Origin: Planctomycetota bacterium
GTDB taxonomy: Bacteria; Planctomycetota; JAJSAM01; JAJVHW01
DNA: 64,000 nucleotides
NCBI GenBank assembly: GCA_965248445.1
Contig: CBDFJG010000004.1
Coordinates: 544,001-608,000, forward strand
Direction: 5' to 3'
Each line of letters begins with the position of its first letter. The stretch's first letter is position 1. Both the position numbers and the translations under genes were made by a program. This document shows positions 6,878 to 26,796 of the stretch, piece by piece. Under the pieces are notes generated by a model. The model was not told the DNA's origin. It saw only the letters and a program-made list of their open reading frames with translations, and searched no databases.

Positions 6878-7339
6878 TCAGCAGCATCCGCCGCTGCCGC
6901 ACCCGCCACCACCGCCGTGCTGGTGGCCGTCGTCGGGCGCGCCCGATCCCTCACCACACTGGCCATCGCCACACGCGCCGCTGTTGCAGGACCCGCCCTC
7001 GGGGCGCGGCACGCTGACCTTGAAGCCCTGCACCTCGGCCGTCTCGACGTAGTCGACCGTCGCTCCGTGCACGTAGGGCAGGCTCTGCGGATCGACGATG
7101 ACGGAGAGATCTCCGACCTTGACCGACGTGTCGCCGTCCTCGGCCTTGTCGAACGCGAGTCCGAACGCCGGGCCGCCGCAGCCACCGCCCGCCACAAACA
7201 GGCGCAGGTTGCGCTCGTCGGCGGCGAGTTCCTCCTGCTCCATCACGGCCAGCACCTTGGCGCGGGCGCCGTCGGTGATGGTCAGGTCGTTGATCGTGGC
7301 CGGAGTCGGGGTCGGTGTAGGTGTGGTCTCGGTCGACAT
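6878..7339 (-). CDS. HesB/IscA-family Fe-S assembly accessory protein with a Cys/His/Gly-rich tail
   Basis: ITDGA, LRLFVAGGGCGGPAFGLAFD, VDPQSLPYVHGATVDY, QGFKV. Confidence 0.85.
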   Translation of the reverse strand: MSTETTPTPTPTPATINDLTITDGARAKVLAVMEQEELAADERNLRLFVAGGGCGGPAFGLAFDKAEDGDTSVKVGDLSVIVDPQSLPYVHGATVDYVETAEVQGFKVSVPRPEGGSCNSGACGDGQCGEGSGAPDDGHQHGGGGGCGSGGCC

Positions 7340-7987: not shown

Positions 7988-9721
7988 GTGCAGATCACCA
8001 CGCTGCTCCGCACTCTCCGCAGGACGGCATCGCTGCGCGACGCCGCATGGGCGACCGCCTGGGCCGCAGCGCTGCTGGTCGTCGAAGTTGTCGGCCGGCA
8101 ATCACCGAGTGAGTGGATGGACGCGTCGCTGCTCGGTTCGCTGATCGTGCTCGGGATGGTCACTCACGGCCGCAACAGCGCTCGCGAGATCACGTGGTGG
8201 AGCGCACTCGCCCGTGGCGTCAAGCGAGCGAGCAAGGCCGTCGAACGGGCGATGTCGCTGAGCGCCGACCTGCGGCCCGATCGTCTGCCGAACGCACTGC
8301 CGATCGGAATGCTCGCGTGGATCGGGACGCTGCTCGTGGCGGTGTACGCGGCGGCATTGTTCGGCGGACCCGCCGCGCTCCGTTCGCTGGCGGGGATCGC
8401 GTACGTCCCGGCGCTCGCGGCGCTCGCGACGATGTGGGCTGCGACGCTCATGTCGTGGGTGATCGTGGGCGGGCTGACGGGCTGGTTCGTGATCGACCTG
8501 ATCGCCGTTCGCCGCGAGAACGGCACGCCGCCGGGGCCGAGGCCGGTGTATCGCGGCACCTGGATACTGGCGGGACCGACTGTCGGCGCCCTGACCTCCG
8601 CCGCCGTCCCGTCGCCGGTCTACGCCGCACTGACGCTGCTCGCCGCACTCGGCCTTCTGCTGGTGCTGCCGTTCCTCACCAACTACGACCAAGTGTCCGC
8701 AGTCACGACCCGCCGCGGCGAGCAGCGCCGGGTGAGTCTGCCGTTCGCGTTCGCGTGCAGCGTCCTGCCGTGGCCTCTGCTGATGGTCACAGCGGCGTTC
8801 GCGATGTCGGGCGTCCAGCGCGCCGACGCCACGGCGGCGGGGCTCGGGTTCTCCGCCCGCGCCGCCACCGCCGGCGCCGCATGTTGGACGACGTTCCTGC
8901 TGCTCGCCGCGTATCACGTGCTGCGCGACGGACTGACTGCCCGGTGGCAGGACGAGACGCGCGAGCCCTCGCGGCGCGTCGCCCTCGACGGTGACCCGGA
9001 GGCCGTCGCCGAGGCGCGCTCGCAGCTCGTCGCCGCCGGGTTCAAGGTCCGTCGCACCGACCGGCCCGAGCGGGGCGAAGTTCGGGTCGTCGTGCACCCG
9101 CCTCTCGATGGAGTGGACGTGGTCTCGATCGTCGAGCGCCGTCACCGCATCCAGCAGCGCCGTCTGATCCGACGCGGTTTGCGCCGCGCGCTCAAGGCCG
9201 CCAGCCGCTTCCGCTACGACAAGGGCCACGGCTACCTGTTGATGCCGCACGTCGCGGTCATGCCGCGCCTGCTCCGCAACGAGAGGGAGGAGGACAGTGC
9301 GTCGCGCGGGATCGGCTGCAGCGAGGACGTTCTCGCGCCCGACTGGGTGAGGCTCATCCCCCCCACCGGGCTGCACCACCTGCGCGAGGTCCTGCTGGCC
9401 ACTGATGTCGACGCGATCTTCCTCGAGGACGGCATCTCCCACCGCAACCTCATGCGCGTGCTCGGGATACTGTACGAGGTCTACGACATGCATGACGGCG
9501 AGCGCCGTGTCATCGACCGCGACTTCGTCGGTCTGGTGCACGTGCGCGTGATCCTGCACGACGTCGGCGGGCAGTCACCGTTCCGGCACAGCGGCTACAG
9601 AGAGCCCGACTACGAGAACGTGGCGCGCGCGCGCATGCTGCACGTCTTCAAGGAACGCGGCGGCGAAGAGGACCGCGTGGAGGCGCCGGCGCCCGGCGAC
9701 CTCGTACCGGTTCTGGCCTAG
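7988..9721 (+). CDS. Multi-pass membrane protein with a soluble C-terminal domain, function unknown
   Basis: 577-aa ORF; many hydrophobic segments in the N-terminal ~310 aa; ordered-looking C-terminal domain (FLEDGI...EPDYENVARARMLHVFKERGG). Confidence 0.7.
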   Translation: MQITTLLRTLRRTASLRDAAWATAWAAALLVVEVVGRQSPSEWMDASLLGSLIVLGMVTHGRNSAREITWWSALARGVKRASKAVERAMSLSADLRPDRLPNALPIGMLAWIGTLLVAVYAAALFGGPAALRSLAGIAYVPALAALATMWAATLMSWVIVGGLTGWFVIDLIAVRRENGTPPGPRPVYRGTWILAGPTVGALTSAAVPSPVYAALTLLAALGLLLVLPFLTNYDQVSAVTTRRGEQRRVSLPFAFACSVLPWPLLMVTAAFAMSGVQRADATAAGLGFSARAATAGAACWTTFLLLAAYHVLRDGLTARWQDETREPSRRVALDGDPEAVAEARSQLVAAGFKVRRTDRPERGEVRVVVHPPLDGVDVVSIVERRHRIQQRRLIRRGLRRALKAASRFRYDKGHGYLLMPHVAVMPRLLRNEREEDSASRGIGCSEDVLAPDWVRLIPPTGLHHLREVLLATDVDAIFLEDGISHRNLMRVLGILYEVYDMHDGERRVIDRDFVGLVHVRVILHDVGGQSPFRHSGYREPDYENVARARMLHVFKERGGEEDRVEAPAPGDLVPVLA

Positions 9722-10100: not shown

Positions 10101-10868
10101 TCACCGCCTGGGCGGGAGCTGGAAGCCGGGCGGGAGCGGCGGCCACGTGCCGGTGCTCGCCGAGGCCGTGGGTGGTGCAGCCTGTGCGGGGGGCGGACTG
10201 GGAGGCGCGGACGGCAACGAGGCGCCGCCGGGCAGCGGCGGTGCCGGCGGCTTGGGCGCACTCGGCGGCAACTTGAAGCCGCCCGGGAGCTTCGGCGCAG
10301 GTGGTCCGCCGGCCCTCTTCGCGGGAGCGGCCGATGGCGCCGCGGCGGGAGCACCGAGGCCCTTGACCTTCACCGCGGTGACCGCGCGATGCGTCGCGCG
10401 CCGTGCATCCCGCCCCGCCGCTCGGCTCTTCGCCGCGGGGGCGAGCCGCTTGGCGTGGTCGCGCTTCGCGAGCAGCAGGGACTCGAACGTGGCGGCGAGC
10501 TCGACGTCGTCGTCAGGGAGCCGTGCCACCAGCGCCTCGACGCGGGCGACCTCGCCCTCCGCCTCCTCCGCGGCACGGATGACGAGCCACTCGAGCGAGA
10601 GGTAGTTCAGGTCTTCCTTCCACAGCCGGAACGCGCGCAGCGTCGGGCCGGCGCGGTATCGCCCGAGCTGCACCAGCAATGCGCGGGTCAGCGCGTTCTC
10701 TTCGTCGCGGATGTCCTCGAGCAGCTGAAGGTCGCCCTCCCACTCGGACTTCACGTACGGGTTCGACCCAAGTGCGTGACCGACGAACGAGTGGTACTCC
10801 GCGGAGATGGCGGCGTTCAGCAGGTCGATGATCCCGCGGCGCGTCATCTTCTCGCTCGTGGCGCTCAT
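10101..10868 (-). CDS. Ferritin-like four-helix protein with a Pro-rich C-terminal tail, last gene of the nuo operon
   Basis: MSATSEK...LLNAAISAEY...DIRDEE...DLNYLSLEWL...KRDHAKRL; ATGA overlap with the nuoN stop. Confidence 0.7.
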   Translation of the reverse strand: MSATSEKMTRRGIIDLLNAAISAEYHSFVGHALGSNPYVKSEWEGDLQLLEDIRDEENALTRALLVQLGRYRAGPTLRAFRLWKEDLNYLSLEWLVIRAAEEAEGEVARVEALVARLPDDDVELAATFESLLLAKRDHAKRLAPAAKSRAAGRDARRATHRAVTAVKVKGLGAPAAAPSAAPAKRAGGPPAPKLPGGFKLPPSAPKPPAPPLPGGASLPSAPPSPPPAQAAPPTASASTGTWPPLPPGFQLPPRR

Positions 10869-12430
10869 CGCAGCACCGCCACGGCGTCGCGCGCCAGATC
10901 GGTGACGGAGTCCCAGCCCCAGAGTCCGAGGATGAGCAGCGGAACCGTCAGCGCGACGACGATCGCGAGATCGACGCCGCCCGTCGCCGTGCCGCCGATC
11001 GGCGGGCTCTCGACGCCGTTCTCCGGGGCCGGGGGATCGCGCAGGAACATCTCGCGCATGGGCTTCGCGTAGTAATAGAGCGACACCGCGCCGTTCAGGA
11101 GACCGAACGCCGCCAGGACATACATGCCCTCCTGCACCACTGGTGCGAAGAGCTGCAGCTTGCCAACAAAGCCCGCGGTCGGCGGCAGACCGGTCAGCGA
11201 GATGAGCATGATCGCGAAGCACGCTGCCAACAGTGTCTGCTTGTGGCCGAGGCCGCGCAGCGCGTGCACGTCGTCGGTGCCGAGATCGCGCTTCATCAGC
11301 ATGACGAAGAAGAACGCGCCGAGGTTCATGCAGAGGTAGATCAGGAAGTAGAAGCCGATCGCGGTCAGCGCGTCCGTCGAGGCGTCCGCGTGCAGGACGA
11401 CGACGGCGGTCATCAGCAGGTAGCCCGCGTGCGCGATCGAGGAGTACGCGAGCATGCGCTGCAACTTGTCCTGCCGGAGCGCTGCGAGGTTGCCCCACGT
11501 CATCGTGCCGACGGCGGCCACGGCGAGCATCTTCTCGACGAAGGCTGTGTCCTTGGCGAACAGTTCGCTGAGCGACGGCTCGACCGTCAGTCCAGCGCCC
11601 TGCGCGCCGTACGCCAGCACGCGGAGTCCCACGGCGAAGACAGCGGCCTTGGAGGCGACGGCCAGGAAGCCTGCGATCGGCGTCGGCGCGCCTTCGTAGA
11701 CGTCCGGGCACCAGAACTGGAACGGGAACGCGGCCGCTTTGAACGCGAAGCCGCCGAACGTCATCACCGCGCCCACCATCAAGGCCGGCTCCGCCTGGGC
11801 GGCGAGCAGACGCTCGGCGATCACGTCGAACTGCGTCGAGCCGGTGAACCCCATGATCAGAGTGATGCCGAACAGCATCACGGCGGACGAGACCGATCCG
11901 AAGATGACGTACTTGCCCGACGCCTCGGCGCCCTTGGCGCTCTCGAGGCGGTACCCGGCCATCAGGTAGCCGGTGTACGACACGAGCTCGAACGCGACGT
12001 AGAAGCCGATCAGTTCGGTCGCGCTCGCGAGGTAGCACATGCCGGCGAGCGCGCCGAACATCAGGACCTGGAACTCGCCTTCCTGCCCGTACTTCTTCCC
12101 GGACCGCATGACGGACACGACGGTCAACGCAGCGGTCGCCAGGAAGATCAGTTTGAACAGCCGGCCCAGCCCGTCGACGTGCATGGCGTCCATCGCCCCG
12201 TAGCCGACGCCGACGTTCTCGCCGCCCATGACCACGAGCACGGCGCCGATGACGATTCCCGCCAGCGTGATGAGGGGGTACACGGGGCTCGGGCCCTTGT
12301 GCCGGACGACGTCGATCAGCAGAACGACGACGACCATGGCGCACAGGAAGAACTCGGGCAGCAACGCCCCGAAGTTCTGGAGGGCGTCCGCCTTGAGCGG
12401 TCCCGCGTCCTGTGCGAGGAGGAAGCTCAC
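10865..12430 (-). CDS. nuoN: NADH-quinone oxidoreductase subunit N
   Basis: EASGKY, FKAAAFPFQFWCPDVYEGAPTP, RMLAYSSIAHAGY, GLPPTAGFVGK. Confidence 0.95.
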   Translation of the reverse strand: MSFLLAQDAGPLKADALQNFGALLPEFFLCAMVVVVLLIDVVRHKGPSPVYPLITLAGIVIGAVLVVMGGENVGVGYGAMDAMHVDGLGRLFKLIFLATAALTVVSVMRSGKKYGQEGEFQVLMFGALAGMCYLASATELIGFYVAFELVSYTGYLMAGYRLESAKGAEASGKYVIFGSVSSAVMLFGITLIMGFTGSTQFDVIAERLLAAQAEPALMVGAVMTFGGFAFKAAAFPFQFWCPDVYEGAPTPIAGFLAVASKAAVFAVGLRVLAYGAQGAGLTVEPSLSELFAKDTAFVEKMLAVAAVGTMTWGNLAALRQDKLQRMLAYSSIAHAGYLLMTAVVVLHADASTDALTAIGFYFLIYLCMNLGAFFFVMLMKRDLGTDDVHALRGLGHKQTLLAACFAIMLISLTGLPPTAGFVGKLQLFAPVVQEGMYVLAAFGLLNGAVSLYYYAKPMREMFLRDPPAPENGVESPPIGGTATGGVDLAIVVALTVPLLILGLWGWDSVTDLARDAVAVLR

Positions 12431-14088
12431 TTCTGCTCTTCCTCCCGCAGCAGCACGACACGCAGGCGCTCATCCGCAACGAGCGGAAGCGCGCCGGTGT
12501 CGAGTTCGTCGGCGCCGCCGTCGAGCACGCCCGTGTCGAGCTTCTTGATCTCTACCACGAACGGCTTGCGCCACTCGGCGATCGCGGGATCGATGCCGTC
12601 GATGAATGGCTTCGGGTAGAGGCCCATGAAGAGCGACAGCGCCGCGAGGGGCACCAGCGTGATCGCCTCGCGCATCGACAGGTCGCGGAAGCCGTGCATC
12701 GGCGTCTCCTTCGCCTTGCCGAAGAACACCTTCTGGATCATGACCAGGATGTAGACGGCGCCGAGAACGATGCCGACCGTGCCGATGATGGTGAACACCT
12801 TCGCGTTCGGCAGCTCGCTCTTGAACGAGCCGAAGAACACGAACATCTCCGCCACGAACCCGGAGAGCCCCGGTAGGCCGAGCGATCCGAAGAACGCGAT
12901 CATCGCGACGAACGTGTACTTGGGCAGCGTGCCGAGCAGGCCGCCGAAGCGGTTGAGATCGCGGTGGTGCGCCTGGTCGTAGATGACGCCCACGCAGAGG
13001 AACATCATTCCGCTGAGTAACCCGTGGCTGAACATCTGGAGCACGGCTCCGTTGATACCCTCGGGCGTCATCGCGGCGATGCCGAGCAACACGTAGCCCA
13101 TGTGGCTGACGGACGAGTACGCGACCAGCTTCTTCCAGTCCGTCTGCGCCAGCGCCACCAGCGCGCCGTAGATGATCGAGAACACCGCCAGTGACGCGAG
13201 GTACGGCCACGCTGCGATCGCCGCATCGGGGAACCAGGGGAACGCGATCCGGATCAGTCCGTAGCCGCCGAGCTTCAGCAGGACGCCGGCCAGGATCACG
13301 GAGATCGGAGTCGGCGCCTCCACGTGCGCGAGCGGCAGCCACGTGTGGAACGGGAACACCGGGATCTTGATGGCGAATCCGATGAACAGCGCGACGAACA
13401 GCGTCATGCGCAGCGCGGCGTTGCCCGGGAAGATCGCACTCTGGTGCGCGATGATGTCCGGGATGGAGAATGCGTTCAGCGCCATCCCCACGTACTCGGG
13501 CTTCGCGAACTCCTCACTGAGCTGGAAGTACACGGCCAAGAACGCACCGAGCATCAGCACCGAGCCGACCAGCGTGTAGAGGAAGAACTTGATCGCGGCG
13601 AACTCGCGCTTGGGACCTCCCCAAATGCCAATGAGGAAGTACATCGGCAGGAGCATGACCTCCCAGAACACGTAGAACAGGAACAGGTCCATCGCCACGA
13701 ACGTGCCGAGCATGCCCGTGAGCAGCAGCAAGTACATCGAGTAGAAGCCGCGCACCTTCTTGGTGATCCCCATGCCGGAGATCGCTGCCAGGAAACCGAG
13801 GATGCCGGTCAACAGGATGAGCAGCATCGAGACGCCGTCGACGTCCATCGCGTAGTTGATCTGGAACGAGTCTCCGACGGTGATCCAGGGCTTGCTGAAG
13901 CCCCACTGGCTGGTCTGTCCCAGCAGTTCGGTGTGCGATGCATCGAATTGCAGGTACAGGAAAATCGACAGCACCATCACCACGGCGGTGACAGCGATCG
14001 CGGTCAGTCGCTGCACCCGCGCGCTGTTCGTCAGGAACAGCAGCGGGATGCCGATGACCGGCAGGAAAGTCAGAAGTGTCAGTTCCAT
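12427..14088 (-). CDS. nuoM: NADH-quinone oxidoreductase subunit M
   Basis: FYVFWEVMLLPMYFLIGIWG, KIPVFPFHTWLPLAHVEAP, LVAYSSVSHMG. Confidence 0.95.
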   Translation of the reverse strand: MELTLLTFLPVIGIPLLFLTNSARVQRLTAIAVTAVVMVLSIFLYLQFDASHTELLGQTSQWGFSKPWITVGDSFQINYAMDVDGVSMLLILLTGILGFLAAISGMGITKKVRGFYSMYLLLLTGMLGTFVAMDLFLFYVFWEVMLLPMYFLIGIWGGPKREFAAIKFFLYTLVGSVLMLGAFLAVYFQLSEEFAKPEYVGMALNAFSIPDIIAHQSAIFPGNAALRMTLFVALFIGFAIKIPVFPFHTWLPLAHVEAPTPISVILAGVLLKLGGYGLIRIAFPWFPDAAIAAWPYLASLAVFSIIYGALVALAQTDWKKLVAYSSVSHMGYVLLGIAAMTPEGINGAVLQMFSHGLLSGMMFLCVGVIYDQAHHRDLNRFGGLLGTLPKYTFVAMIAFFGSLGLPGLSGFVAEMFVFFGSFKSELPNAKVFTIIGTVGIVLGAVYILVMIQKVFFGKAKETPMHGFRDLSMREAITLVPLAALSLFMGLYPKPFIDGIDPAIAEWRKPFVVEIKKLDTGVLDGGADELDTGALPLVADERLRVVLLREEEQK

Positions 14089-14092
14089 GCGT

Positions 14093-16096
14093 TCACCTGC
14101 TGGCCGCGTAGAGCATGATCACGGCGAAGACCGCGACCGACGTCACGGCGCCGAAGAGGTAGTTCCGAACCCGGCCGCTCTGGAAGCGGCTGAGGATGCC
14201 CCCGCCGCCCCACATGGCGCCGGCGGTTGCCTGCACCGCCCCGTCCACGACACCGTCGTCCACAACGCCGCTGGCGTCGGACGTCTTCATCGTGACCGAA
14301 CCGGCACCGTCCACGAACCCGTCGAGGACGTCGTTGTCGAACCAGGACGAGAGAGCCGCGAAGAGGTTCGTCGTCTTGATCAGGCAGAAATCGACGATCT
14401 CGTCGATGTAGTACTTGCCGGCCGCGGCCGCGTAGATCGGCGCCACGGCGGCGCGCATACGCTGCCGCAGCGCGGTACCAAACGCGGGCACGTACCAGAG
14501 CGTCGCGAGGGCGATCCCGCCGAACGCCACGCAGAGCGACACGACGAGCGCCACCGAGTGCGCGTGATGCGCCACGTCGCCGTCCAGATTGAACGATCGC
14601 GCGAACGCGGAGAGCGGCATGCTCTCGATCGGCAGCAACGCGTTGTGCCAGCCGTAACCGCCCGCAATCGCGAGCGTGGCCAGGACGACGAGCCCCGTCG
14701 TCATGGTCCACGGCGACTCGTGCGCGTGGTCGTGCACGTGCTGGTCGCGTGGCTTGCCCTCAAACGTGAGGTAGTAGCTGCGGAACATGTACGCGGCCGT
14801 CATCAGCGCGGCCAGCGCGAGCAGCACGAAGATGACCTTGTAGGTGAAGTCGAAGTAGCCGTTCCCGGCCCACAGCGACTGCAGGATCATGTCCTTGCTG
14901 AAGAATCCCGCTGTGAACGGGAACCCGGCGATGGCCAGGCACGCGACCAGGTACGTGATCGCCGTGATGGGCATCTTCTTCCGCAGCCCGCCCATCTGCG
15001 TCATGTCCTGCAGGTGGTGGCAACCGTGGATCACGGAGCCTGACCCGAGGAACAGGCAGGCCTTGAACATCGCGTGCGTCGCGAGGTGGAACAGGCCGGC
15101 CTTCCAGGCGATGTTGGATCCGACGCCGAGCGCCGTGAACATGAAGCCGAGTTGACTGACCGTCGAATAGGCCAGCACCTGCTTGATGTCGGTTCGAGTG
15201 AACGCAATCGTCGCGGCGAACAACGCGGTGAAGCAGCCGATGACCGAGATGATCACCAGCGCGCCGGGCGACGCGACGATCAGGGTGTACATGCGCCCGA
15301 CGAGGTAGACGCCCGCCGCAACCATCGTGGCCGCGTGGATCAGGGCCGACACGGGCGTCGGGCCTTCCATCGCGTCCGGCAGCCAGATGTGCAGAGGGAA
15401 CTGCGCCGACTTGCCGGCCGCGCCCATGAACAGCCCGAGCGCGATCCAGATCTTCGCGCCACCCGGGATCATGTGCAGGTTGGCGAAGATCTCCGCGAAC
15501 TGGAGTTTGTCCGTGTAGAGGTAGATCGCCAGCAGCGCGAGGAACATGCCGACGTCGCCGACGCGCGTCGTCATGAACGCCTTCTTGGCCGCCTGGTAGG
15601 CCGACGTCTTGAAGTAGAAGTGGCCGATCAGCTTGTAGGACGCGAGCCCCATCACCTCCCACGAGATGTAGAGCGTGAGGAGGTTGTCGCTGATGACGAG
15701 TCCGAGCATCGAGCACGTGAAGAGCCCGAGCCACCGGTAGAAGTCCGTGTACCGGTCGTCGCCCTGCATGTAGCCCTTCGAGAAGAGGTGCACGAGGAAC
15801 GAAACAATCGTCACGACGAGCAACATCGCGAGCGTCAGCCCGTCCAGCGCGATGCCGATCGTCCAGTCGATCCCGCCGACCGACAGCCAGACGAACTCCC
15901 AGGTCTGCCCGGCGTACTCCGCGTGACCGAGACCGAGAGCCGCGGCGCACGCCAGCGCCACGCCCATGCAGCCGATGCCGATGGCGTCCGCGCCGCGGAC
16001 CGACTGCTTGCCGATCATCTGCAGCGCACCGATCACGCAGGCCGCGAGGAGCGGCATCACGAGGATGACGACGGCCAGCAGGATCCCGGTGGGCAT
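14093..16096 (-). CDS. nuoL: NADH-quinone oxidoreductase subunit L
   Basis: GKSAQFPLHIWLPDAMEGPTPVSALIHAATMV, LAYSTVSQLG, THAMFKACLFL. Confidence 0.95.
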   Translation of the reverse strand: MPTGILLAVVILVMPLLAACVIGALQMIGKQSVRGADAIGIGCMGVALACAAALGLGHAEYAGQTWEFVWLSVGGIDWTIGIALDGLTLAMLLVVTIVSFLVHLFSKGYMQGDDRYTDFYRWLGLFTCSMLGLVISDNLLTLYISWEVMGLASYKLIGHFYFKTSAYQAAKKAFMTTRVGDVGMFLALLAIYLYTDKLQFAEIFANLHMIPGGAKIWIALGLFMGAAGKSAQFPLHIWLPDAMEGPTPVSALIHAATMVAAGVYLVGRMYTLIVASPGALVIISVIGCFTALFAATIAFTRTDIKQVLAYSTVSQLGFMFTALGVGSNIAWKAGLFHLATHAMFKACLFLGSGSVIHGCHHLQDMTQMGGLRKKMPITAITYLVACLAIAGFPFTAGFFSKDMILQSLWAGNGYFDFTYKVIFVLLALAALMTAAYMFRSYYLTFEGKPRDQHVHDHAHESPWTMTTGLVVLATLAIAGGYGWHNALLPIESMPLSAFARSFNLDGDVAHHAHSVALVVSLCVAFGGIALATLWYVPAFGTALRQRMRAAVAPIYAAAAGKYYIDEIVDFCLIKTTNLFAALSSWFDNDVLDGFVDGAGSVTMKTSDASGVVDDGVVDGAVQATAGAMWGGGGILSRFQSGRVRNYLFGAVTSVAVFAVIMLYAASR

Positions 16097-16422
16097 CAGC
16101 CCTTCATCTCCGTGTAGTCATCGACGCTGATGCTGGCCGCGTGGTGGAAGACGTGCAGCACGATGGCGAGCGCGACGGCGGCCTCGGCGGCCGCGAGCAT
16201 CACGACGAAGATCGCGTAGACGGCGCCGTCGATGTACGGACCGCCACCCGGTGCGTGCGCGTAGCGGCTGAACGCAACGAGGTTGATGTTGCACGCGTTC
16301 AGCATGAGCTCGATGCCGATCAGCACCGCGATGGCATTGCGCCGGAGCGTCACCGCCATCACGCCGACCGAGAAGAGCATCGCGCCGAGTACGAGGAAGT
16401 GAGTCAGCTCGAGGCCGCCCAT
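16096..16422 (-). CDS. nuoK: NADH-quinone oxidoreductase subunit K
   Basis: RRNAIAVLIGIELMLNA...AAAEAAVALAI; ATG at 16422. Confidence 0.95.
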   Translation of the reverse strand: MGGLELTHFLVLGAMLFSVGVMAVTLRRNAIAVLIGIELMLNACNINLVAFSRYAHAPGGGPYIDGAVYAIFVVMLAAAEAAVALAIVLHVFHHAASISVDDYTEMKG

Positions 16423-16943
16423 CAGCGGGTCCCTCCACGAGCGACCCGCGCCGCGCCGACCAGCACGACGAGCAGCAGGATAGAAGCGAACTCGAACGGC
16501 AGCAGGTAGTCCGTCAGGAGCGAGCGGCCGATCCGCGCCGTCGTCTCGAAGGCGTCCACAGGTCCGCCGGAGAAGTGCGGGAGCCGCGCCCACGAAGTGC
16601 CGGTGATCGCCCATGACAGGCCACCGAACGTGAGGCCGCCGGCGAGAGCCGCCGGCAGGTAGTTGCGCTTGCGCACGACGCGGTACTCGTCCGGCACGCG
16701 GTCGGTGAGGAGGATGCCGAAGCAGAGCAGGATCAGGATGCCGCCCACGTAGACGACGACCTGCGTGACGGCCATGAAGTCGCTGCCGAGCACGGCGTAG
16801 ATGCCGGCGACGCAGAAGAACGTCGCCAACAGGGCGAACGCGCAATGGACGATCTTGTGCGCCGTAGCCGCAACGATGCCCGACGCGATCGCGAGGGACG
16901 CGAACGCGTAGAAGGCCAGCTGGACGCCGATCCCTTCGCTCAT
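16422..16943 (-). CDS. nuoJ: NADH-quinone oxidoreductase subunit J
   Basis: QVVVYVGGILIL, YLLPFEFASILLL. Confidence 0.95.
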   Translation of the reverse strand: MSEGIGVQLAFYAFASLAIASGIVAATAHKIVHCAFALLATFFCVAGIYAVLGSDFMAVTQVVVYVGGILILLCFGILLTDRVPDEYRVVRKRNYLPAALAGGLTFGGLSWAITGTSWARLPHFSGGPVDAFETTARIGRSLLTDYLLPFEFASILLLVVLVGAARVARGGTR

Positions 16944-17500
16944 GTGTTCCTGGCCGGGTCCTGGTCCACGAGCGTCTCGATGCCGTGCTCGGCGCGTTCC
17001 TTGCGCTTCTTCTCGAAGAGACCTTCCTGCTGGAACTCCTTCACCATCTCGAGCGCGTGCGAGCTGCGCACCTGGACCGGGTAGCCGCCCTCGTGGAACT
17101 TCACGACCATCTCGTCGCGGTTGTGGCCGGGCAGCGAGTAACGCTCACCGAGGACGATGCACTCGGCCGGGCACGGCGGGACGCACAGTGCACAGAACAG
17201 GCACTTGCTGTAGTCGATGTCGAACCGCGTCATGATCGCGGCCTTGCCCTTGCCGACCGACTCGATGTAGATGCAGTCCACCGGGCACGCTTTCGCGCAG
17301 AGCTCGCAGCTGATGCAGCGATCGACGTCGAACTCGTGCAGTCCGCGGTGCGTGACCTTGTCGATCGGCAGCTTCTCGAACGGGTAGTTCAGGACGAAGC
17401 GGTTCTTCACCGGGATGTTCTTCACGAAGTAGCTCGCGGTGATCTTCAGACCCTGAGCGGTCGTGCGGATGCTCTCGTAGATGTTCCCGAAGTAGCTCAA
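16940..17500 (-). CDS. nuoI: NADH-quinone oxidoreductase subunit I (2x[4Fe-4S])
   Basis: CISCELCAKACP and CLFCALCVPPCP; TTG start overlapping the nuoH stop. Confidence 0.92.
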   Translation of the reverse strand: MSYFGNIYESIRTTAQGLKITASYFVKNIPVKNRFVLNYPFEKLPIDKVTHRGLHEFDVDRCISCELCAKACPVDCIYIESVGKGKAAIMTRFDIDYSKCLFCALCVPPCPAECIVLGERYSLPGHNRDEMVVKFHEGGYPVQVRSSHALEMVKEFQQEGLFEKKRKERAEHGIETLVDQDPARNT

Positions 17501-18687
17501 GCGGCACCTCCGGACATGAGCGCCGCGAGCCCGTTCGCAAGCATGCAGACCAGCGCGAACGGAACGAAGTACTTGTAGCACATGCTCATCACCTGATCGA
17601 TGCGCAGGCGCGGTAGCGTCCAGCGGATCTGCATCATCAAGATGAAGAGTCCGATGGTCTTCCACGAGAACTCGACGACGCCCGCAACGACCGACGGCAC
17701 GTCGAAGTTCGTGAGCAATCCGTAGAACGGACCGCTGCCCCATCCACCGAGGAACAGCGTCACCGTGATCCCGGACAACGCAAACATCGCCGCGTACTCG
17801 CCGAGGAAGAACAGGCCCCAGCGCATGCCCGAGTACTCGGTCAGGAATCCGGACACGAGTTCGGACTCGGACTCCGGCAAGTCGAACGGCGCACGCTTCA
17901 GGTTGGCGAGCACGCACACGTAGAAGATGACGAGCACGATGATGTTGAACGGGAACGCAGCGAACACGAACCAACCCGCGCCCCACTGTGCGACCGAGTC
18001 CGGAATGCCGAAGCCCCAGATCGACGCACCGGCCTGCTGACCCGCAACGATGTCGCCCATCGACAGGGAGCCGACGAGCAGCACGGGGCAGATCGCGGCG
18101 AGACTCATGGGGATCTCGTACGACACAACCTGCGCGACCTCGCGCATCGCGCCGAGCAGCGACCATTTGTTGTTCGAGGACCACCCGGCCATGAGCACCG
18201 CAATGACCTCGATGGCCCCGACCGCCAGCAGATAGAAGATGCCGACGTTCACGTCGGCCGCGATCAACCCGTCACTGAGCGGGAGTGCTGCGAAGAGCGC
18301 GAGTGCACCGGCGAATCCGATGACGGGCGCTGCGATGAAGAGGAGCGGCTCGCCCTTGGGCGGAACGAAGTCCTCCTTGCCGAGCAGCTTGATGCCGTCG
18401 GCGAGGGACTGACCGAGGCCCCACAGGCGCGCCCACTTGTGCTTCTTGTGCAGGAACGGGATGCCGACGAAGTTCGGACCCGACCGGTCCTGCATGAGTG
18501 CGGACACGCGGCGCTCCGCCCACACGCCGAGCAGTCCGACCGGCGTGACCACCGCGAGCACGACGAGGATGGCGGGCACGAGGCCGAGCACCGTGTTCTG
18601 GGCGAACGGCGGCACCTTGTCCCAATACGGGACGTAGTCCGCGGCAAGCTTCGCGAGCTCCGGTGCTTCGAGCGCGAGGAGGTTCAC
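17497..18687 (-). CDS. nuoH: NADH-quinone oxidoreductase subunit H
   Basis: ERRVSALMQDRSGPN, ADGIKLLGKE, SYEIP, RAPFDLPESESELVSGFLTEYSG. Confidence 0.95.
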   Translation of the reverse strand: MNLLALEAPELAKLAADYVPYWDKVPPFAQNTVLGLVPAILVVLAVVTPVGLLGVWAERRVSALMQDRSGPNFVGIPFLHKKHKWARLWGLGQSLADGIKLLGKEDFVPPKGEPLLFIAAPVIGFAGALALFAALPLSDGLIAADVNVGIFYLLAVGAIEVIAVLMAGWSSNNKWSLLGAMREVAQVVSYEIPMSLAAICPVLLVGSLSMGDIVAGQQAGASIWGFGIPDSVAQWGAGWFVFAAFPFNIIVLVIFYVCVLANLKRAPFDLPESESELVSGFLTEYSGMRWGLFFLGEYAAMFALSGITVTLFLGGWGSGPFYGLLTNFDVPSVVAGVVEFSWKTIGLFILMMQIRWTLPRLRIDQVMSMCYKYFVPFALVCMLANGLAALMSGGAA

Positions 18688-19913
18688 CGATCTACCTCAC
18701 CGAGCACGATGTCGATGGAGCCGATGATCGCGACGAGGTCGGCGATCAGGTAGCCGCGTGAGATCTCCGGCAGCACCGCGATGTTGCTGAACGCCGGGCC
18801 GCGGATCTTGCAGCGGTACGGGGCGTTCTTCGCATCGGACACGAGGTAGAACGCGAGCTCGCCGCGCGGGTTTTCACCGCGCACGTACACCTCGGCATCG
18901 CGCGGGCCGCGCAGCACACGCGGCACGTCCGGGTTGATGTACGGCTGGTACATCGACTTCGGCGTGATCTTCGGATCGCGGCCGGGCAGCCTGTCGATGG
19001 CCTGTCGCACGATCTTGATGGACTCGGCCAGCTCCTGGGCACGTATCCAGTGACGGTTCCAGCAGTCACCGACTGTGCCGTACTTGCCGTCTGCAACTGG
19101 AATGCGCCACTCGACCTGGTCGTACAGGCCGTAGGGATCGTCGCGCCGCGTGTCCCAATCCACCGCCGACGCGCGCAACGCGGGTCCCGTGATCCCGTGC
19201 GCGAGCGCCTTTTTGCGCGACAGTATCCCAACACCCATGGTGCGCTGCTTGAACACCTTGTTCCAGGTGGTCAGCGTGTTGTACTGCTCCATCTTCTCCT
19301 CGACGATGTCGAGGAACTCGAGCGCTTCCTGGATCCACTCGTCGGTGAGATCGCGCGCCACGCCGCCCACGCGGAAGAAGTGGTAGAGCATGCGACCGCC
19401 GGAGATCGCCTCGAACAGCGAGTTGCTGCGTTCGCGCTCGCGGTAGCAGTAGAGGAACGGCGTGAACGCGCCGATGTCGAGGCCGTACACACCGATCGAG
19501 AAGATGTGCGACGCGATGCGTCCCAGCTCCGCGATGATCAGGCGGATCCACTGGATGCGCTCGGGGATCGCGATGCCGCAGAGCTTCTCGACGGCGCGCG
19601 CGTAGCACTCCTCGTTGTTCATCGCCGCGAGGTAGTCGAGGCGATCCGTGTACGGCATGAACTGCCAGTACTGGACGTGCTCCGCGATCTTCTCCTTGCA
19701 GCGGTGCAGGTTGCCGATCATCGGCTCGCAGTCGAGCACGACCTCGCCGTCGGTCTTGACCGCAACGCGCAATACGCCGTGTGTCGCCGGGTGCTGCGGC
19801 CCCATGTTGACGACCATCTCCTCGGACGGCGCGTCGCGGGCGGGCACCCAATACTCCGGAAGCGGGTCGTCGAGAGTGCGCTCCGCGACGCCTGGCAACT
19901 CTGTGGCGCTCAT
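18684..19913 (-). CDS. nuoD: NADH-quinone oxidoreductase subunit D
   Basis: NMGPQHPATHGVLR, DRLDY, ENPRGEL, C-terminal DIVLGEVDR; no NiFe CxxC motifs. Confidence 0.95.
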   Translation of the reverse strand: MSATELPGVAERTLDDPLPEYWVPARDAPSEEMVVNMGPQHPATHGVLRVAVKTDGEVVLDCEPMIGNLHRCKEKIAEHVQYWQFMPYTDRLDYLAAMNNEECYARAVEKLCGIAIPERIQWIRLIIAELGRIASHIFSIGVYGLDIGAFTPFLYCYRERERSNSLFEAISGGRMLYHFFRVGGVARDLTDEWIQEALEFLDIVEEKMEQYNTLTTWNKVFKQRTMGVGILSRKKALAHGITGPALRASAVDWDTRRDDPYGLYDQVEWRIPVADGKYGTVGDCWNRHWIRAQELAESIKIVRQAIDRLPGRDPKITPKSMYQPYINPDVPRVLRGPRDAEVYVRGENPRGELAFYLVSDAKNAPYRCKIRGPAFSNIAVLPEISRGYLIADLVAIIGSIDIVLGEVDR

Positions 19914-20711
19914 CTAGGCGCCCCTCTTGGGCGGCAACTGGAAGCCAGACGGCAACGGCGGCCAGTTGCCGCCGGAAGGCGCGGGCGGTGCGGCGGACGC
20001 CGGCGGCGACGGTGGTGCCTTCGGCGGGAGCTTCATGCCGCCGGGGAGCGCCGGGGCCCCGCCTGAATTCGCACTGGGCATCGTCATGCCGGGCGGCAGC
20101 GGCGGCGCACCGGAGGACGCAGGCTTCGCAGCAGCCGGCTTCGCCGCGGCGGCTGTGGGCGCATCTCCGTGCTTCGCGGCGCGACGGGCGGACTCCTCGG
20201 CTCGCGAGTCCTCCTCGAGCTTGCGGATCATCCCGATGCTCGGAACGCCGTGGTACTCGAGCGGGTTGCCCTCGTCCTTCCTGAGCGGCCAGCCCTCCCA
20301 GTCGGACGGCAGCAGGATGCGGCGCAGGTTCGGGTGACCCTGGAAGACGACTCCGAACATGTCGTACGTCTCGCGCTCGTGCCAGTCGGCGGCGGGCCAG
20401 ACGGCCGTCACCGACGGGCACGTCGCGTCGTCCCGTGACGGCGTGTCGACCTTGACACAGATGCCGTGCTTCCTGTCCACGGAGTAGAGATGGACGACGA
20501 CCTCGAAGTGCGCGAGGCGGTCCACCGCGGTGACGTCGTGGCACACCTCCATTTGCGTCCGGTCGTCGTCGCGCAGGAAACGGCAGGCGCCCACGTACGT
20601 GTCGCGGCCGACCTTGACCCACTCCTTGAGATCGTCGGTCGAGACCTCGAGGACCGCGTCCCCGAACTGCTCCTTGAGCAGGTCACCGAATTCCGCGACG
20701 GACAGGCCCAC
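19914..20711 (-). CDS. nuoC: NADH-quinone oxidoreductase subunit C with a Pro-rich C-terminal extension
   Basis: [26 protein letters not shown]...GWPLRKD. Confidence 0.95.
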
Positions 20712-20720
20712 GGGTCTCGT

Positions 20721-21701
20721 CTACCTCAGGTGCAGGGGGGTGTAAGGCTGCGGCGGACCCGACGGCGCGTCGCGGTTTGCTGCGAGCACCGCCGGCGGCA
20801 GTGGACCGCTCGCGAGGAGGGCTGTCGGGGGGAAGTCGCCACCGCCCGCCGGCGCGGCCGCAGCGGCGGGAGTGGACGGGGCCGCAGGCGCAGACGGGGC
20901 CGCGGGCTTCGCCGGGAGCTTCATCCCGCCGGGGAGCGGCGGCGCCCCGCCTGAACTCGCCCCACCTGAACTGGCACTGGGTAGCTTCATCCCACCCGGC
21001 AACGGCGGTGCCTTCAGCGACGGCGCCTTCGCGGGCGCCGACGGAGCGGACAGCTTCGGCGCCGCGCGCGTCGGCGCGGCCGCGGCGGCTGAAGGGATGC
21101 CGGGCATGCGCCCATCCATCACGTCGGACTGGCCCTTGCGGACGGCGTCGGCGATGGCCGCCTGCTGATCGATCGAGCCGCGTGTGAAGATCAACTCCTG
21201 CAGCTTCTGCAGACCGTCGATCAGCGCCTCGGGTCGCGGGGGGCAGCCCGGCACGTGCACATCCACGGGGATCACGAGATCGACTCCCTGGACCACGTGG
21301 TAGCCCCACTTCGAGTACGGGCCGCCGCCTACGGTGCACGCCCCCATCGCGATGACCCACTTGGGCTCGGCCATCTGCTCCCACAAACGGCGAACGCGGT
21401 GCGCCATCTTGTACGTGACGGTGCCCGCCGTGATCATGAGGTCCGCCTGGCGCGGCGTGGCGCGGAACGCACCGCAGCCCAGCCGGTCGACGTCGTAGCG
21501 CGTGGCGGCGAAGCCCATCATCTCGATGGCGCAGCACGCGAGACCGAAGGTCATCGGCCAGACCGCGTTGCCGCGGCCCCACGCGATCACGTCGCGTAGA
21601 CCGACGACCGTCGTCAAGAACGCTGCGTCGTCGTCGAGCGCGCCGCCGGGGCCGGGGCGCAACAGGTTCCAGTCGCTCGGACGGTATACCTCGGCAGTCA
21701 T
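20721..21701 (-). CDS. nuoB: NADH-quinone oxidoreductase subunit B with a Pro/Ala-rich C-terminal extension
   Basis: [26 protein letters not shown]. Confidence 0.95.
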
Positions 21702-21705
21702 GGAC

Positions 21706-22194
21706 TCAGGCTCCCGCCTCGACAGTTAGACCAGGCTGCGCCGACGGCGTCCCTGCCGGCGCCTGGACCGGCCCGCCCAGGCCGGGGTCGCCGGACGGAG
21801 CGCGCGCGCCAGGGCTCTTCTTGCCGTGCAGCGGAATCCAGTCGATGTCGCCCTTGCGCCACACGTAGGCCAGGCCGACCGCCAGCACGGCCACGAAGAC
21901 AACGGCCTCGACGAACGCAAGCGGCCCCAGTTCCTTCAGCGTGACTGCCCACGGGAACAGGAAGAGCACCTCGACGTCGAAGATCACGAAGACCAGGCAG
22001 ATGACGTAGAAGCGGATGTCGAAGCGGATGAAGGCTCCGCCGAACGTCGGTTCGCCGCACTCGTACGACGTCGCCTTCTGCTCGGTGTAGTCGGTCTTGG
22101 AGCGCAGCAAGCGTCCAATAGCGACCATGTTCAGGAGCACGAAAGCTGCCCCGAACAAGAGGAACATCAGGATCGTCAGGAAGTCCTGCTGCAT
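21706..22194 (-). CDS. nuoA: NADH-quinone oxidoreductase subunit A
   Basis: [37 protein letters not shown] at 22194. Confidence 0.95.
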
Positions 22195-22688: not shown

Positions 22689-22851
22689 CCCTGCCGGAGG
22701 CTCACTCGGCCTCGGGAGGCACTGCTAGAGTCCGCCGCGCGGACGGCCCCCGCCACCGGAAGGAGACCGCCATGCCCACCGCCGGCCTTCGGCCCGCGCT
22801 CTCCACGGTCCGCCTCGTCCCCGACGACACCACCCGGTGGGCGCGTCGCGC

Positions 22852-24063
22852 ATGAGACTCACTACACCCGACGGCGCCCGGCTGGAGCTCGCGTATTGCA
22901 CGAACGTCCGGCCGGCGGAATCGCCGGCCGCTCTGCAGCAGGACATCGCGGGATTCTGGAGCGACGTCCGCGCGCTCGTCGGTGCGCGGCGACTCGGGCT
23001 CGGACTCTGGTTCCCGCGTGACGTGGCGGCGGCGCTCGCGCGTGACGCGGACGGCCTGGCGCGCCTCGCGGACGCACTCGAATCAGCGCAGCTCACGGCC
23101 GCAACCGTGAACGCGTTTCCCGCGGACGCGTTCCACGCCGACGTCGTGAAGGAGGCGGTCTACCGCCCGAACTGGCTGACTCCGGCACGGGCGCAATACA
23201 CGCTCGACGCAGCCCGCGTGCTCGGTGCTCTCTCGCCGGAGGGTGCCGTGCGCACGCTCTCTTCGCTGCCGCTCGGCTTTCCGAAGTGGTCCCCCACCGA
23301 ACTACAGCGCGCAGCGGGCCGGCTGGTCGGGCTGGCTCTCGACCTCGACCGATTGCGCATCGACACGGGACGCACACTCCGCATCGCCCTCGAACCCGAA
23401 CCGTGCTGCGCGCTCGAGCGGAGCGACGAGGCGGTCGCGTTCTTCCGCGATCACCTGATCCCGGCCGCCGAGGTGGCCGGGCGAGCCGCCGAAGTCGGCG
23501 CGGACGCAGGCCGCGAGGCGGTCCTCCGTCACGTCGGCGTTTGCCTCGACCTCTGTCACGCCGCCGTGGAGCACGAGGACCCCGTCACGGCGCTGGCGAG
23601 CTACGACGCAGCGGGCGTCCCGGTGTTCAAGGTGCAGGTCTCCGCAGCGCTCGACGTGACGGACCCGGCGGAGCAGGCAACGGCCTTGCGAGCGTTCGCC
23701 GAGCCGCGCTGGCTGCACCAGGTGGGCCTGCCGGACGGCCGCGTCCTGCTCGACCTGCCCGACGCACTACGCGACGAGGACCTGCTACGGCAGGCGCCTT
23801 GGCGCGTGCACTTCCACGTACCCCTACACCGCGAGACGGTCGGCGGCCTGCCAACGACCCGCGGCGAGGTCGAGCGCTTCCTCCGGTACGCGGCCACGCT
23901 CGAGGCGCCGCCGCTGCTCGAGCTCGAGACGTACACGTGGTCCGTCGTCCCGGGCGCGAGGGAAGATGGCGCCGACGAGGACCTGGCGGCGAACGTCGCG
24001 GCCGAGATCGGCTTCTGCCGCGACGTGCTGACCGGCGCAGGCTGCGTGGAGGATGGGACATGA
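22852..24063 (+). CDS. eboE: EboE-family xylose-isomerase-like TIM-barrel protein
   Basis: LAYCTNV, VKEAVYRPNW, LEPEPCC, GVCLDLCHAAVE, EPRWLHQ, WRVHFHVP, ELETYTW. Confidence 0.9.
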   Translation: MRLTTPDGARLELAYCTNVRPAESPAALQQDIAGFWSDVRALVGARRLGLGLWFPRDVAAALARDADGLARLADALESAQLTAATVNAFPADAFHADVVKEAVYRPNWLTPARAQYTLDAARVLGALSPEGAVRTLSSLPLGFPKWSPTELQRAAGRLVGLALDLDRLRIDTGRTLRIALEPEPCCALERSDEAVAFFRDHLIPAAEVAGRAAEVGADAGREAVLRHVGVCLDLCHAAVEHEDPVTALASYDAAGVPVFKVQVSAALDVTDPAEQATALRAFAEPRWLHQVGLPDGRVLLDLPDALRDEDLLRQAPWRVHFHVPLHRETVGGLPTTRGEVERFLRYAATLEAPPLLELETYTWSVVPGAREDGADEDLAANVAAEIGFCRDVLTGAGCVEDGT

Positions 24064-25732: not shown

Positions 25733-26796
25733 AAGACGTCGAACGCCTGCTCGGGTTCGCCGTAGAGCCGGTGAAGACACTCGACTACGGCCCCGGGAGC
25801 ACGCACGAGGTCGTGCTGGTCGCACACCGTGACGAACCCTCGCCGCGATACGTCGTCAAGCGTGCGCGCGGCGATCCCGGTCCGCTGATCCGGGAGCGAC
25901 TCGCACTCGAGTCGTACGCCGAGCATCCAGACGCGCGCGCCCTCGTGCCGGGCGTCGTCGCCGCCTCAGAGAGCGGCGAGCTGCTCGTCGTCGAGGCGCT
26001 TCCCATTGCCGACTCCGACCGGCTCGGCGCGATCCTGGAGGGGGATGATCCCGAGCGTGCGCGCAACGCGCTGCTCGCACACGTGCGGGCTCTGGCCGTG
26101 CTGAACAGCGCACCCGTCGCCGACCCGTTCGCGCGGCGAGTGACGGCGCACGGGCCGCTGACTTCGTCGCGTCACGCTGTGAACTACTGGAGCGAGCACG
26201 TCGCCGCGCTGTCCGAGAGGCTGAGCGCGTTGTGTGGGCGGGCGGGCGGCATCGCGGAGGAAGCTGCACAGGCGACAGATCGCATGCTGGCCGGGCCCGC
26301 TGCGCTCTCGCACGGCGACGGAACCGCCGCGAACACGTTCGTCACGGAAGCGGGTCGCGCGTACGTGATCGACTTCGAGACGGCCGCCGTGCGCCACCCG
26401 GCGATGGACGGCGCGTTCGGCCGCATCCGGGATCTGAACAGCGTGTGGGCGCTGGAGCTGCCGGCGCCGCTGCGCGAGGAGGCGACGCGCGCCTACCGCG
26501 ACACCCTCGCGCCGGGCCCGGACTGGGAGAGCGACGAGACGGCCGCCGCGGCGGTCTGGCTGGCGATCCTCCTGCGCCGGCCGGAGCGCTACATGGATCA
26601 CGACCAGCGCTGGGGCGAGTCGGGCCTGCGCTGGCGCGTGTTCACGGGGCTCGAGCGGTTCGCCGAGATCGCGCGGACGAACGGTGAGATGCCGTCGACC
26701 GCCGACGCATGCGAACGCGGCGTCGCCGCACTGCGCAACCGCTGGTCCGACGAAGATCGCACGGCGCGGACGTACCGCGCGTTCGCGCGTCAATAG
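25729..26796 (+). CDS. APH/choline-kinase-like phosphotransferase
   Basis: YVVKR, SHGDGTAAN, IDFE; GTGA overlap with the previous gene. Confidence 0.7.
   Translation: MKDVERLLGFAVEPVKTLDYGPGSTHEVVLVAHRDEPSPRYVVKRARGDPGPLIRERLALESYAEHPDARALVPGVVAASESGELLVVEALPIADSDRLGAILEGDDPERARNALLAHVRALAVLNSAPVADPFARRVTAHGPLTSSRHAVNYWSEHVAALSERLSALCGRAGGIAEEAAQATDRMLAGPAALSHGDGTAANTFVTEAGRAYVIDFETAAVRHPAMDGAFGRIRDLNSVWALELPAPLREEATRAYRDTLAPGPDWESDETAAAAVWLAILLRRPERYMDHDQRWGESGLRWRVFTGLERFAEIARTNGEMPSTADACERGVAALRNRWSDEDRTARTYRAFARQ

Follow-up and report, generated by a model that had tools for sequence, protein, structure and literature searches.

Why two subunits of a respiratory complex I and a protein of unrelated fold should end in long tails built on the same short proline-rich motif was the question raised by a 64,000-nt stretch of DNA from a Planctomycetota bacterium (NCBI GenBank assembly GCA_965248445.1, contig CBDFJG010000004.1, positions 544,001 to 608,000), referred to here as the window; positions given without a contig name count from its first letter. 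On its minus strand lies an operon of the order nuoABCDHIJKLMN, followed by a gene for a ferritin-fold protein whose start overlaps the nuoN stop. In the original prediction, the motif was read as a docking signal tethering NuoB, NuoC and the ferritin-like protein to a common partner. The observation was confirmed, and the docking interpretation was borne out in part and extended, with the motif core also found on KorB, the beta subunit of a 2-oxoacid:ferredoxin oxidoreductase (OFOR). Tentatively, and at somewhat less than an even chance, the basic motif-bearing tails may recruit an acidic 7Fe ferredoxin that shuttles from KorAB to this complex I without an NADH module.

Genes in the window were assigned by matches above Pfam or TIGRFAM cut-offs, and comparisons covered 17 genomes of the order: the source genome (G000; 5.4 Mb, 92% complete) and the seven other members of its family (f1, 8 genomes including G000), five genomes of the sister family (f2) and four of f3. 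All 11 nuo genes had Pfam matches above cut-off. nuoA (21706..22194, minus strand, as for the whole operon; PF00507) encodes a Pro/Gly tail of ~40 aa that is free of the motif, as had been claimed, and the NuoA tails of relatives are similar (33-39 aa). nuoB (20721..21701; PF01058 and TIGR01957 above cut-off) encodes 326 aa with a 126-aa basic Pro/Ala tail (20724-21101), and nuoC (19914..20711; PF00329 and TIGR01961 above cut-off) encodes 265 aa with an 85-aa tail (19917-20171). The remaining nuo genes, nuoD, H, I, J, K, L, M and N, occupy 10865..19913. The 12th gene (10101..10868, 255 aa), assigned by fold, encodes a four-helix core (residues 1-165) and a 90-aa tail (10104-10373), and is the sole extra gene of the operon. 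nuoD directly adjoins nuoH, so the operon has no NADH module, and no nuoEFG or FpoF-type module was found within it; the claim that this complex lacks NuoEFG thereby held. From its gene content, the complex would be expected to act as an ion-pumping ferredoxin:quinone oxidoreductase.

Pro/Ala tails of ~90-130 aa with eight motif copies had been described for the three genes, and all 8 copies were found as quoted, all on the minus strand. The nuoB tail has B1 (20979..21008) and B2 (20913..20942); the nuoC tail has C1 (20076..20105), C2 (20025..20054) and the terminal copy C3 (19932..19961), B2 and C2 lying inside a block of DNA that the two genes have in common; and the ferritin-fold tail has F1 (PKLPGGFKLP, 10266..10295), F2 (PPLPGGASLP, 10212..10241) and the terminal copy F3 (PPLPPGFQLP, 10113..10142), which is the best conserved copy. 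The strict pattern was derived from these 8 copies themselves, hence shuffled controls were used: across 20,000 shuffles of the three tails, the mean count was 0.001 and the maximum 1, versus 8 observed. All six frames of the 5.4 Mb genome gave 9 strict matches, 8 of them the copies in the nuoB, nuoC and ferritin-fold tails. Equal frequency of the motif in unrelated Pro-rich proteins had been named as a sign of compositional artefact; among 39 proteins in which Pro makes up 25% or more of some 60-aa window, the strict form was confined to the three nuo-operon proteins and was absent from the 36 others. Two runs, probably on the source sample, gave contigs that span all three tails with zero differences, which rules out an assembly artefact, and compositional chance was ruled out by shuffling both the tails and the KorB extensions described below. 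The motif is real and non-random.

Long Pro/Ala/Gly/Lys tails were present on NuoB and the 12th protein in all seven other f1 genomes, and on NuoC in four of the seven, the NuoC tail being only 18-28 aa in the other three. Twenty tails of these relatives were scored (the NuoB of G003, split over contigs, was omitted, and its 12th protein is cut by a contig end). They contained 33 matches to P.[LM]P[GPS][GA], versus 1.6 in shuffles, and 12 matches to LPxG[FM], versus 0.04. The C-terminus is P[PK]LPPGFxxP in 16 of the 24 12th-protein homologues compared, a different, Tyr-containing motif in three and neither in five; the terminal-motif alignment shows just the 16 chosen for having that end, whose core sequences are ~55-90% identical. 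What these sequences conserve is P-x-[LM]-P-[GPS]-G, followed by Phe in terminal copies and often by F/M-x-x-P, and it is kept in all 8 f1 genomes. The original prediction had proposed checking whether the motif is conserved while its spacers vary, and had counted its absence from relatives' orthologues as refutation; the core occurs in orthologues of all seven f1 relatives, with differing spacers. The exact 10-mer, by contrast, is genome-specific and did not stand as the conserved unit. A second terminal motif, GPPxPYxPxHxR, lies at the end of NuoB (20724..20759, minus strand) and is present in five of the eight f1 genomes; in G004 and three homologues the ferritin-fold protein has a Tyr-containing end akin to it in place of PPLPPGF, and ends of this type look like an alternative end-cap.

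Outside f1, operon pieces from all five f2 genomes showed the same operon with short tails and no motif. When two DNA patterns were run over the 17 genomes, in-frame copies were found only in f1 nuo operons, the rest being off-frame chance matches (the patterns are blind to the loose KorB form), and a looser DNA pattern gave counts at background level. A metagenome scan by NuoI returned mostly distant loci, with no motif in the listed NuoB and NuoC tails and the ferritin-fold gene in one locus (loci under 4 kb without that gene were unlisted).

A further carrier of the motif emerged from a scan of the 4,336 genes called in G000 by a simple codon model, which missed at least one small gene, using a motif profile built solely from the ferritin-like tails of 22 other organisms. 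The top 11 sites were made up of the 8 copies, a shifted site within the same tail, one unrelated protein and the N-terminus of KorB. The korB gene (C1:203808-204887) lies on another contig, unlinked to the nuo operon, with an alpha-like gene immediately upstream, and encodes the only OFOR beta subunit found in G000. Its identity was supported by PF02775 (thiamine pyrophosphate-binding) and PF12367 (PFO_beta_C) on an identical record and by a match to TIGR02177 (E 5e-57, under its cut-off); the record names of close homologues refer to 2-oxoglutarate. KorB carries one or two copies within ~20 residues. A similar N-terminal extension is found in the KorB orthologues of all seven f1 relatives and in none of the five f2 genomes. 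In a tree of 131 KorB cores, built with the extension removed and two broken rows dropped, the clade containing all f1 genomes (SH-aLRT 99) had the motif in 42 of 50 scored rows, versus 1 of 68 outside. The form [LMIV]P[PGST]G occurred in 27 of 49 clade extensions, versus 2.5 in shuffles, and in none of the 68 outside, where extensions are equally Pro-rich (24% vs 27%) but almost without Leu and Gly. From six f1 genomes, 14 further OFOR beta paralogues were retrieved, and the motif was absent from all of them. Several f1 relatives have an extra cluster (L294, L296, L297, L299) with two OFOR pairs, rnf-like genes and a large fusion resembling pyruvate:ferredoxin oxidoreductase (PFOR), for which G000 gave no match.

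The candidate carrier between the two enzymes is a 7Fe ferredoxin, FdxA (G000 C2:28561-28881, 106 residues), with the Cys pattern and C-terminal extension of the Azotobacter FdI type; it matches Azotobacter FdI chains over residues 3-83 (E 4e-17) and NF045490 under cut-off. The gene is 3-19 kb from korB in four of the seven f1 relatives and on other contigs in the rest. Locus L280 has a second FdxA paralogue (C4:189703-190020), which shares 65% identity with the first and follows a LysR-like gene. A search for the SucA N-terminal domain was negative in the eight f1 and five f2 genomes and positive in all four f3 genomes (six control genomes positive), while the 12th gene was found in all seven f1 relatives, all five f2 genomes and none of the four f3 genomes. 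Within this order, the genomes with the KorB orthologue, FdxA and the ferritin-fold gene are precisely those that gave no SucA match. G000, at 92% completeness, gave no match to RnfD. On the simplest reading, KorAB would replace 2-oxoglutarate dehydrogenase and the complex would reoxidize the ferredoxin.

Charge is consistent with a capture role. Tails of more than 50 aa have 6-17 K+R and 0-7 D+E, all being net positive with 0-3 aromatics, and FdxA has 19 D+E and 4 K+R. A complex prediction for FdxA with tail residues 220-255 scored 0.32, versus 0.02 for the best control, with at least 90% contact agreement between runs and a partner predicted local distance difference test score (pLDDT) of at least 56. 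Of 157 solved complexes, 116 attained the mark used, as did 2 of 215 mismatched pairs; only 18 of those solved complexes, but both mismatches, did so at 0.60 or less. As the prediction was run on our own alignments, these counts hold only roughly. Weak support of this kind moves the odds a little toward binding.

2-Oxoacid:ferredoxin oxidoreductases reduce ferredoxin, and NuoB, C, D and I form the arm where the electron donor docks. If the tails, which are predicted to be disordered, recruit ferredoxin, their basic residues would steer the acidic protein in and the hydrophobic residues of the motif would hold it briefly. KorAB would run the 2-oxoglutarate step and the complex would oxidize FdxA, with eight copies at the electron-entry arm and one or two on KorB keeping the carrier cycling between the two enzymes. 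The tails would probably raise the local ferredoxin concentration rather than being essential, and copies spread between them partly through DNA exchange. The ferritin-fold protein would then be an accessory subunit or adaptor at the electron-entry arm, with a capture appendage specific to each lineage.

The core of that protein was modeled as a four-helix bundle (pLDDT 96). Its nearest structure was the DPS-like 8w1d (Z 15.5, root-mean-square deviation 2.1 Å over 138 residues), with 2vzb also matched, and Foldseek gave a best E of 5e-3 and template modeling (TM) scores of 0.6-0.7. Pfam gave no match for the G000 protein, although some family members pass the PF00210 cut-off; the label "ferritin-like" was nonetheless upheld by the fold, a four-helix bundle with a crossover connection. 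As read from the sequence, both ExxH motifs are broken (no His follows E57, and K135 precedes H138), and a complete di-iron carboxylate center (two Glu, two ExxH) is not present. The carboxylates are poorly kept across 125 family rows (E24 44%, E/D57 85%, H138 58%), with ligand positions taken from the pattern of helices rather than by superposing structures. Iron storage is therefore unlikely, and the protein differs from members of the ferritin superfamily with the same bundle (8w1d, 2vzb) in these motifs and in being tied to nuoN rather than to iron-storage genes.

The family comprises 693 clusters at E 0.001 and was present in 75 of 301 Planctomycetota genomes sampled. In 46 of 47 Planctomycetota loci (the 30 best and 16 of 17 further loci, of 85 matches listed), nuoN is immediately followed by this gene, and NuoE and NuoF gave no match in those fetched loci (NuoG was not queried). 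Homologue records are labeled Planctomycetota, and the ESM Atlas gave Planctomycetota clusters (0.92) and weak ferritin leads. The gene is a candidate accessory subunit tied to nuoN across many Planctomycetota families. At L183 and L132 it also follows nuoN, in the order L-M-N-gene-I-A-B-C-D and in a record labeled Pseudomonadota, and the link may extend beyond Planctomycetota.

The C-terminal appendage of the protein varies by lineage: none, short Pro/Ala/Lys tails, the motif tail, the repeats of family f28, or an RnfB-type FeS domain. In f28, several basic, helical-looking repeats of ~30 aa (LPDPxEPGISxKEKAKR...) follow the core (L053 5293-6714, minus strand; also L219, L222, L225, L232 and L233), and in six of six genomes searched no other protein carries the repeat; motif sharing is thus no general rule of the ferritin-fold family. 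The f28 repeats may resemble the repeat tails of RnfC, a likeness on which a literature search gave nothing relevant. In one homologue (G152; L257 10895-11647, plus strand), the tail is replaced by the RnfB N-terminal FeS domain PF04060 (30.8 bits, cut-off 23). This domain is also similar to part of a sulfite reductase alpha model.

Several results weigh against ferredoxin recruitment. The complex score lies exactly at the pass mark and the model has no interface; such passes are more often wrong than right. In all five f2 genomes the complex, the ferritin-fold gene, KorB and FdxA are likewise present but the motif is missing, so the pathway can do without it and the motif would be an add-on. 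The co-distribution of KorB, FdxA and the complex against SucA amounts to one evolutionary origin. KorB has the loose core only, without F/M, and an unrelated 871-aa protein with a Pro-rich stretch (C4:1392404-1395019) ranked second in the profile scan. Even within f1, the strict 10-mer occurs only four times in the 20 relatives' tails, LPxG[FM] is absent from the G004 tails, the terminal copy is absent from 8 of the 24 ferritin-like homologues and the NuoC tail is short in three of eight genomes. The f1 ferredoxins have three tryptophans absent from f2, one of which is common with Azotobacter FdI and one with mycobacterial FdxA, making this weak evidence; the Trp gain as a sign of a polyproline groove in the ferredoxin is weakened by these two counterparts in solved FdxA-type proteins. 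The sole RNA run (X5) contained short divergent pieces only. DNA exchange between the tails, set out below, also accounts for part of the motif sharing. The proposal of a docking motif with a common partner thus gained a concrete target, since the motif is also on KorB, and lost some of its force, with the likeness partly due to DNA exchange and binding resting on one weak prediction.

If the motif docks, its reader may be a protein other than FdxA, such as KorA, some adaptor, or the ferritin-fold core or Q-module by way of a pocket, yielding a metabolon of KorAB and the complex without ferredoxin binding. The same conservation and the same set of carriers fit this, the L and F positions are fixed beyond the needs of charge capture, and in the full-length model local confidence is highest at the terminal copy (82). 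PPG plus a hydrophobic residue, PPLP and PxxP, the forms taken by proline-rich ligands of GYF, WW and SH3 domains, all occur within the motif; GYF_2, WW and SH3_1 (PF14237, PF00397, PF00018) were, however, not found in G000, though no control genome passed the cut-off either. The full-length model also speaks against a pocket on the protein's own core: the tail had no secondary structure, the predicted TM score fell from 0.89 to 0.68, and docking of the tail on its own ferritin core was not suggested. We consider such a reader unlikely.

Tolerated low-complexity extensions, arising by slippage and gene conversion, would make the motif a repeat flavor of f1 with no sequence-specific role beyond a basic flexible chain. 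The DNA itself gives this some force. That the nuoB and nuoC tails share DNA had been noted, and the block measures 54 nt with five mismatches (20019-20072 in nuoC versus 20907-20960 in nuoB); in G001, nuoB and nuoC have an identical block of 39 nt. Sharing of 5-mers between tails of different genes was 0.161 in the same genome versus 0.106 in different genomes (17 vs 114 pairs; permutation p 2e-4), and DNA 12-mer sharing was likewise higher within genomes (p 8e-4), kin not being independent in these comparisons. Identical residues of the 8 copies are encoded by the same codon in 119 of 197 pairs (60%), versus 45% expected from codon usage. Within-genome likeness and codon agreement together mean that DNA copying accounts for part of the motif sharing. 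DNA exchange between the tails is real, and they are partly homogenized between genes. Tail length and copy number also vary greatly, down to the loss on NuoC in three of eight genomes, and Pro/Ala extensions are already present on outgroup KorB and ferritin-like proteins. The copies still differ at many synonymous sites, however, and this, with the persistence of the terminal copy across genera, points to selection on the peptide, by which the amino-acid core would be held. Nor does neutrality readily account for a terminal P[PK]LPPGFxxP kept by 16 of 24 homologues at that level of core divergence, for a motif on KorB at the opposite end of a protein encoded on another contig and kept by most of its clade, or for the absence of the strict form from the other Pro-richest proteins. 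A purely neutral origin is, in our judgment, improbable.

A role in maturation was also weighed, in which the motif would recruit iron-sulfur (Fe-S) insertion or chaperone machinery to newly made complex I and KorB, and the ferritin-fold protein would be an assembly factor, not a subunit. NuoB and KorB bind Fe-S clusters, IscU has a Pro-rich chaperone-binding motif, and a gene for an A-type Fe-S carrier (IscA/ErpA-like; 6878..7339, minus strand; TIGR00049 above cut-off), itself without the motif, is the downstream neighbor in the window and lies close to the ferritin-fold gene in 9 of 10 f1 and f2 loci. That carrier gene is also present in f2, which is without the motif. Moreover, the motif is absent from NuoI (two clusters), from other Fe-S proteins and from a second complex I of G000, whose operon with NuoE and NuoF on contig C3 (L063, 800000-813000) has no such tails, whereas NuoC and the ferritin-fold protein, which bind no clusters, have it. 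Such a role seems decidedly improbable.

Alternatively, the tails might act as stickers and spacers that cluster together, as a condensate or a patch on the membrane, and bring KorAB to complex I at high concentration. The repeats, multivalent, rich in Pro and Gly and with hydrophobic residues set at intervals, would suit this, and the ferritin-fold carrier could be oligomeric; the net positive charge of the tails and their 0-3 aromatics disfavor self-association, and KorB has only one or two copies. We regard clustering as very unlikely. A compartment as the common partner is disfavored and targeting to an encapsulin or bacterial microcompartment (BMC) shell was rejected, neither PF04454 nor PF00936 having been found in G000 (92% complete), with control genomes positive.

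Ferredoxin recruitment has precedents in part. The main text of Moparthi and Hagerhall (2011; PMC3144371) reports that no designated partner was found for the 11-subunit enzyme, treats the Q-module as a possible docking platform and suggests that N-terminal extensions of Bacillaceae NuoC may contact partners. For Desulfitobacterium, PFOR and a ferredoxin were proposed as donors in the main text of PMC11238625, extra subunits not being excluded there. Like the complex described here, the 11-subunit enzymes in those texts have nuoABCDHIJKLMN without EFG. Here, by contrast, the extensions are C-terminal and lie on two subunits and the product of a 12th gene, and one common motif is found on all three and on the putative donor enzyme. 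The word "ferritin" is absent from both main texts.

In cyanobacterial NDH-1L, according to PMC7021789 and PMC6992706, ferredoxin binds a positive pocket, which in the account of PMC7021789 is widened by basic residues of NdhV and NdhO. That complex (with NdhV, NdhO and NdhS) likewise has no N-module and lineage-specific accessory help for ferredoxin; it relies on small folded subunits and a [2Fe-2S] ferredoxin, whereas here there are a ferritin-fold bundle, a candidate 7Fe FdxA and a repeated linear motif also on the reducing enzyme. At most, the ferritin-fold protein works like NdhV or NdhO, a likeness of role with no kinship claimed; NdhV, NdhO and NdhS were not among the 50 fold matches listed, mostly annotated ferritin-superfamily entries. 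A full-text literature search, seen as titles and the starts of abstracts and with most subscription papers outside its reach, gave no description of the tails, the motif or a ferritin-like nuo partner. Complex I enzymes that take electrons from ferredoxin, with lineage-specific aid where the electrons enter, are already known; the motif and the partner gene were not found described.

A bolder generalization, which we rate as rather doubtful, would join these strands. The Planctomycetota complex I without an NADH module would have a ferritin-fold 12th subunit serving as a swappable electron-entry adaptor (depending on lineage, with an Fe-S domain, a motif tail or helical repeats), and in f1 a eukaryote-style short linear motif on this adaptor, NuoB, NuoC and KorB would wire a tricarboxylic acid cycle enzyme to the respiratory chain via one ferredoxin, as a motif-coded redox metabolon. 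At least since 2011 it has been asked what feeds electrons to 11-subunit complex I, and the shared tag names a likely route from KorAB through FdxA to complex I. Were the motif to bind ferredoxin, it would offer a transferable means of directing low-potential electrons and, for bacteria, an uncommon example of redox partners coordinated by a short linear motif.

Several features of the surroundings were also recorded. The A-type Fe-S carrier bears a Cys/Gly-rich C-terminal extension and is kept downstream in f1 and f2. Just behind the operon, on the opposite strand, lies a gene for a membrane protein of ~535-577 aa with no Pfam match (7988-9721, plus strand). On the other side, a TIM-barrel-like gene divergent from nuoA (22837-24063, plus strand) is kept in four relatives, and feoB lies nearby (26790-29027, minus strand). 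With its second nuo operon, G000 thus encodes both kinds of complex I, and NuoF-like genes outside the operon described here were found in that second operon and beside a molybdopterin oxidoreductase. A cluster at L066 (2330-11912, minus strand) encodes a fused NuoE/F-like protein, an aldehyde:ferredoxin oxidoreductase, a MobA-like protein and an FdhA-like molybdopterin oxidoreductase, none with the motif.

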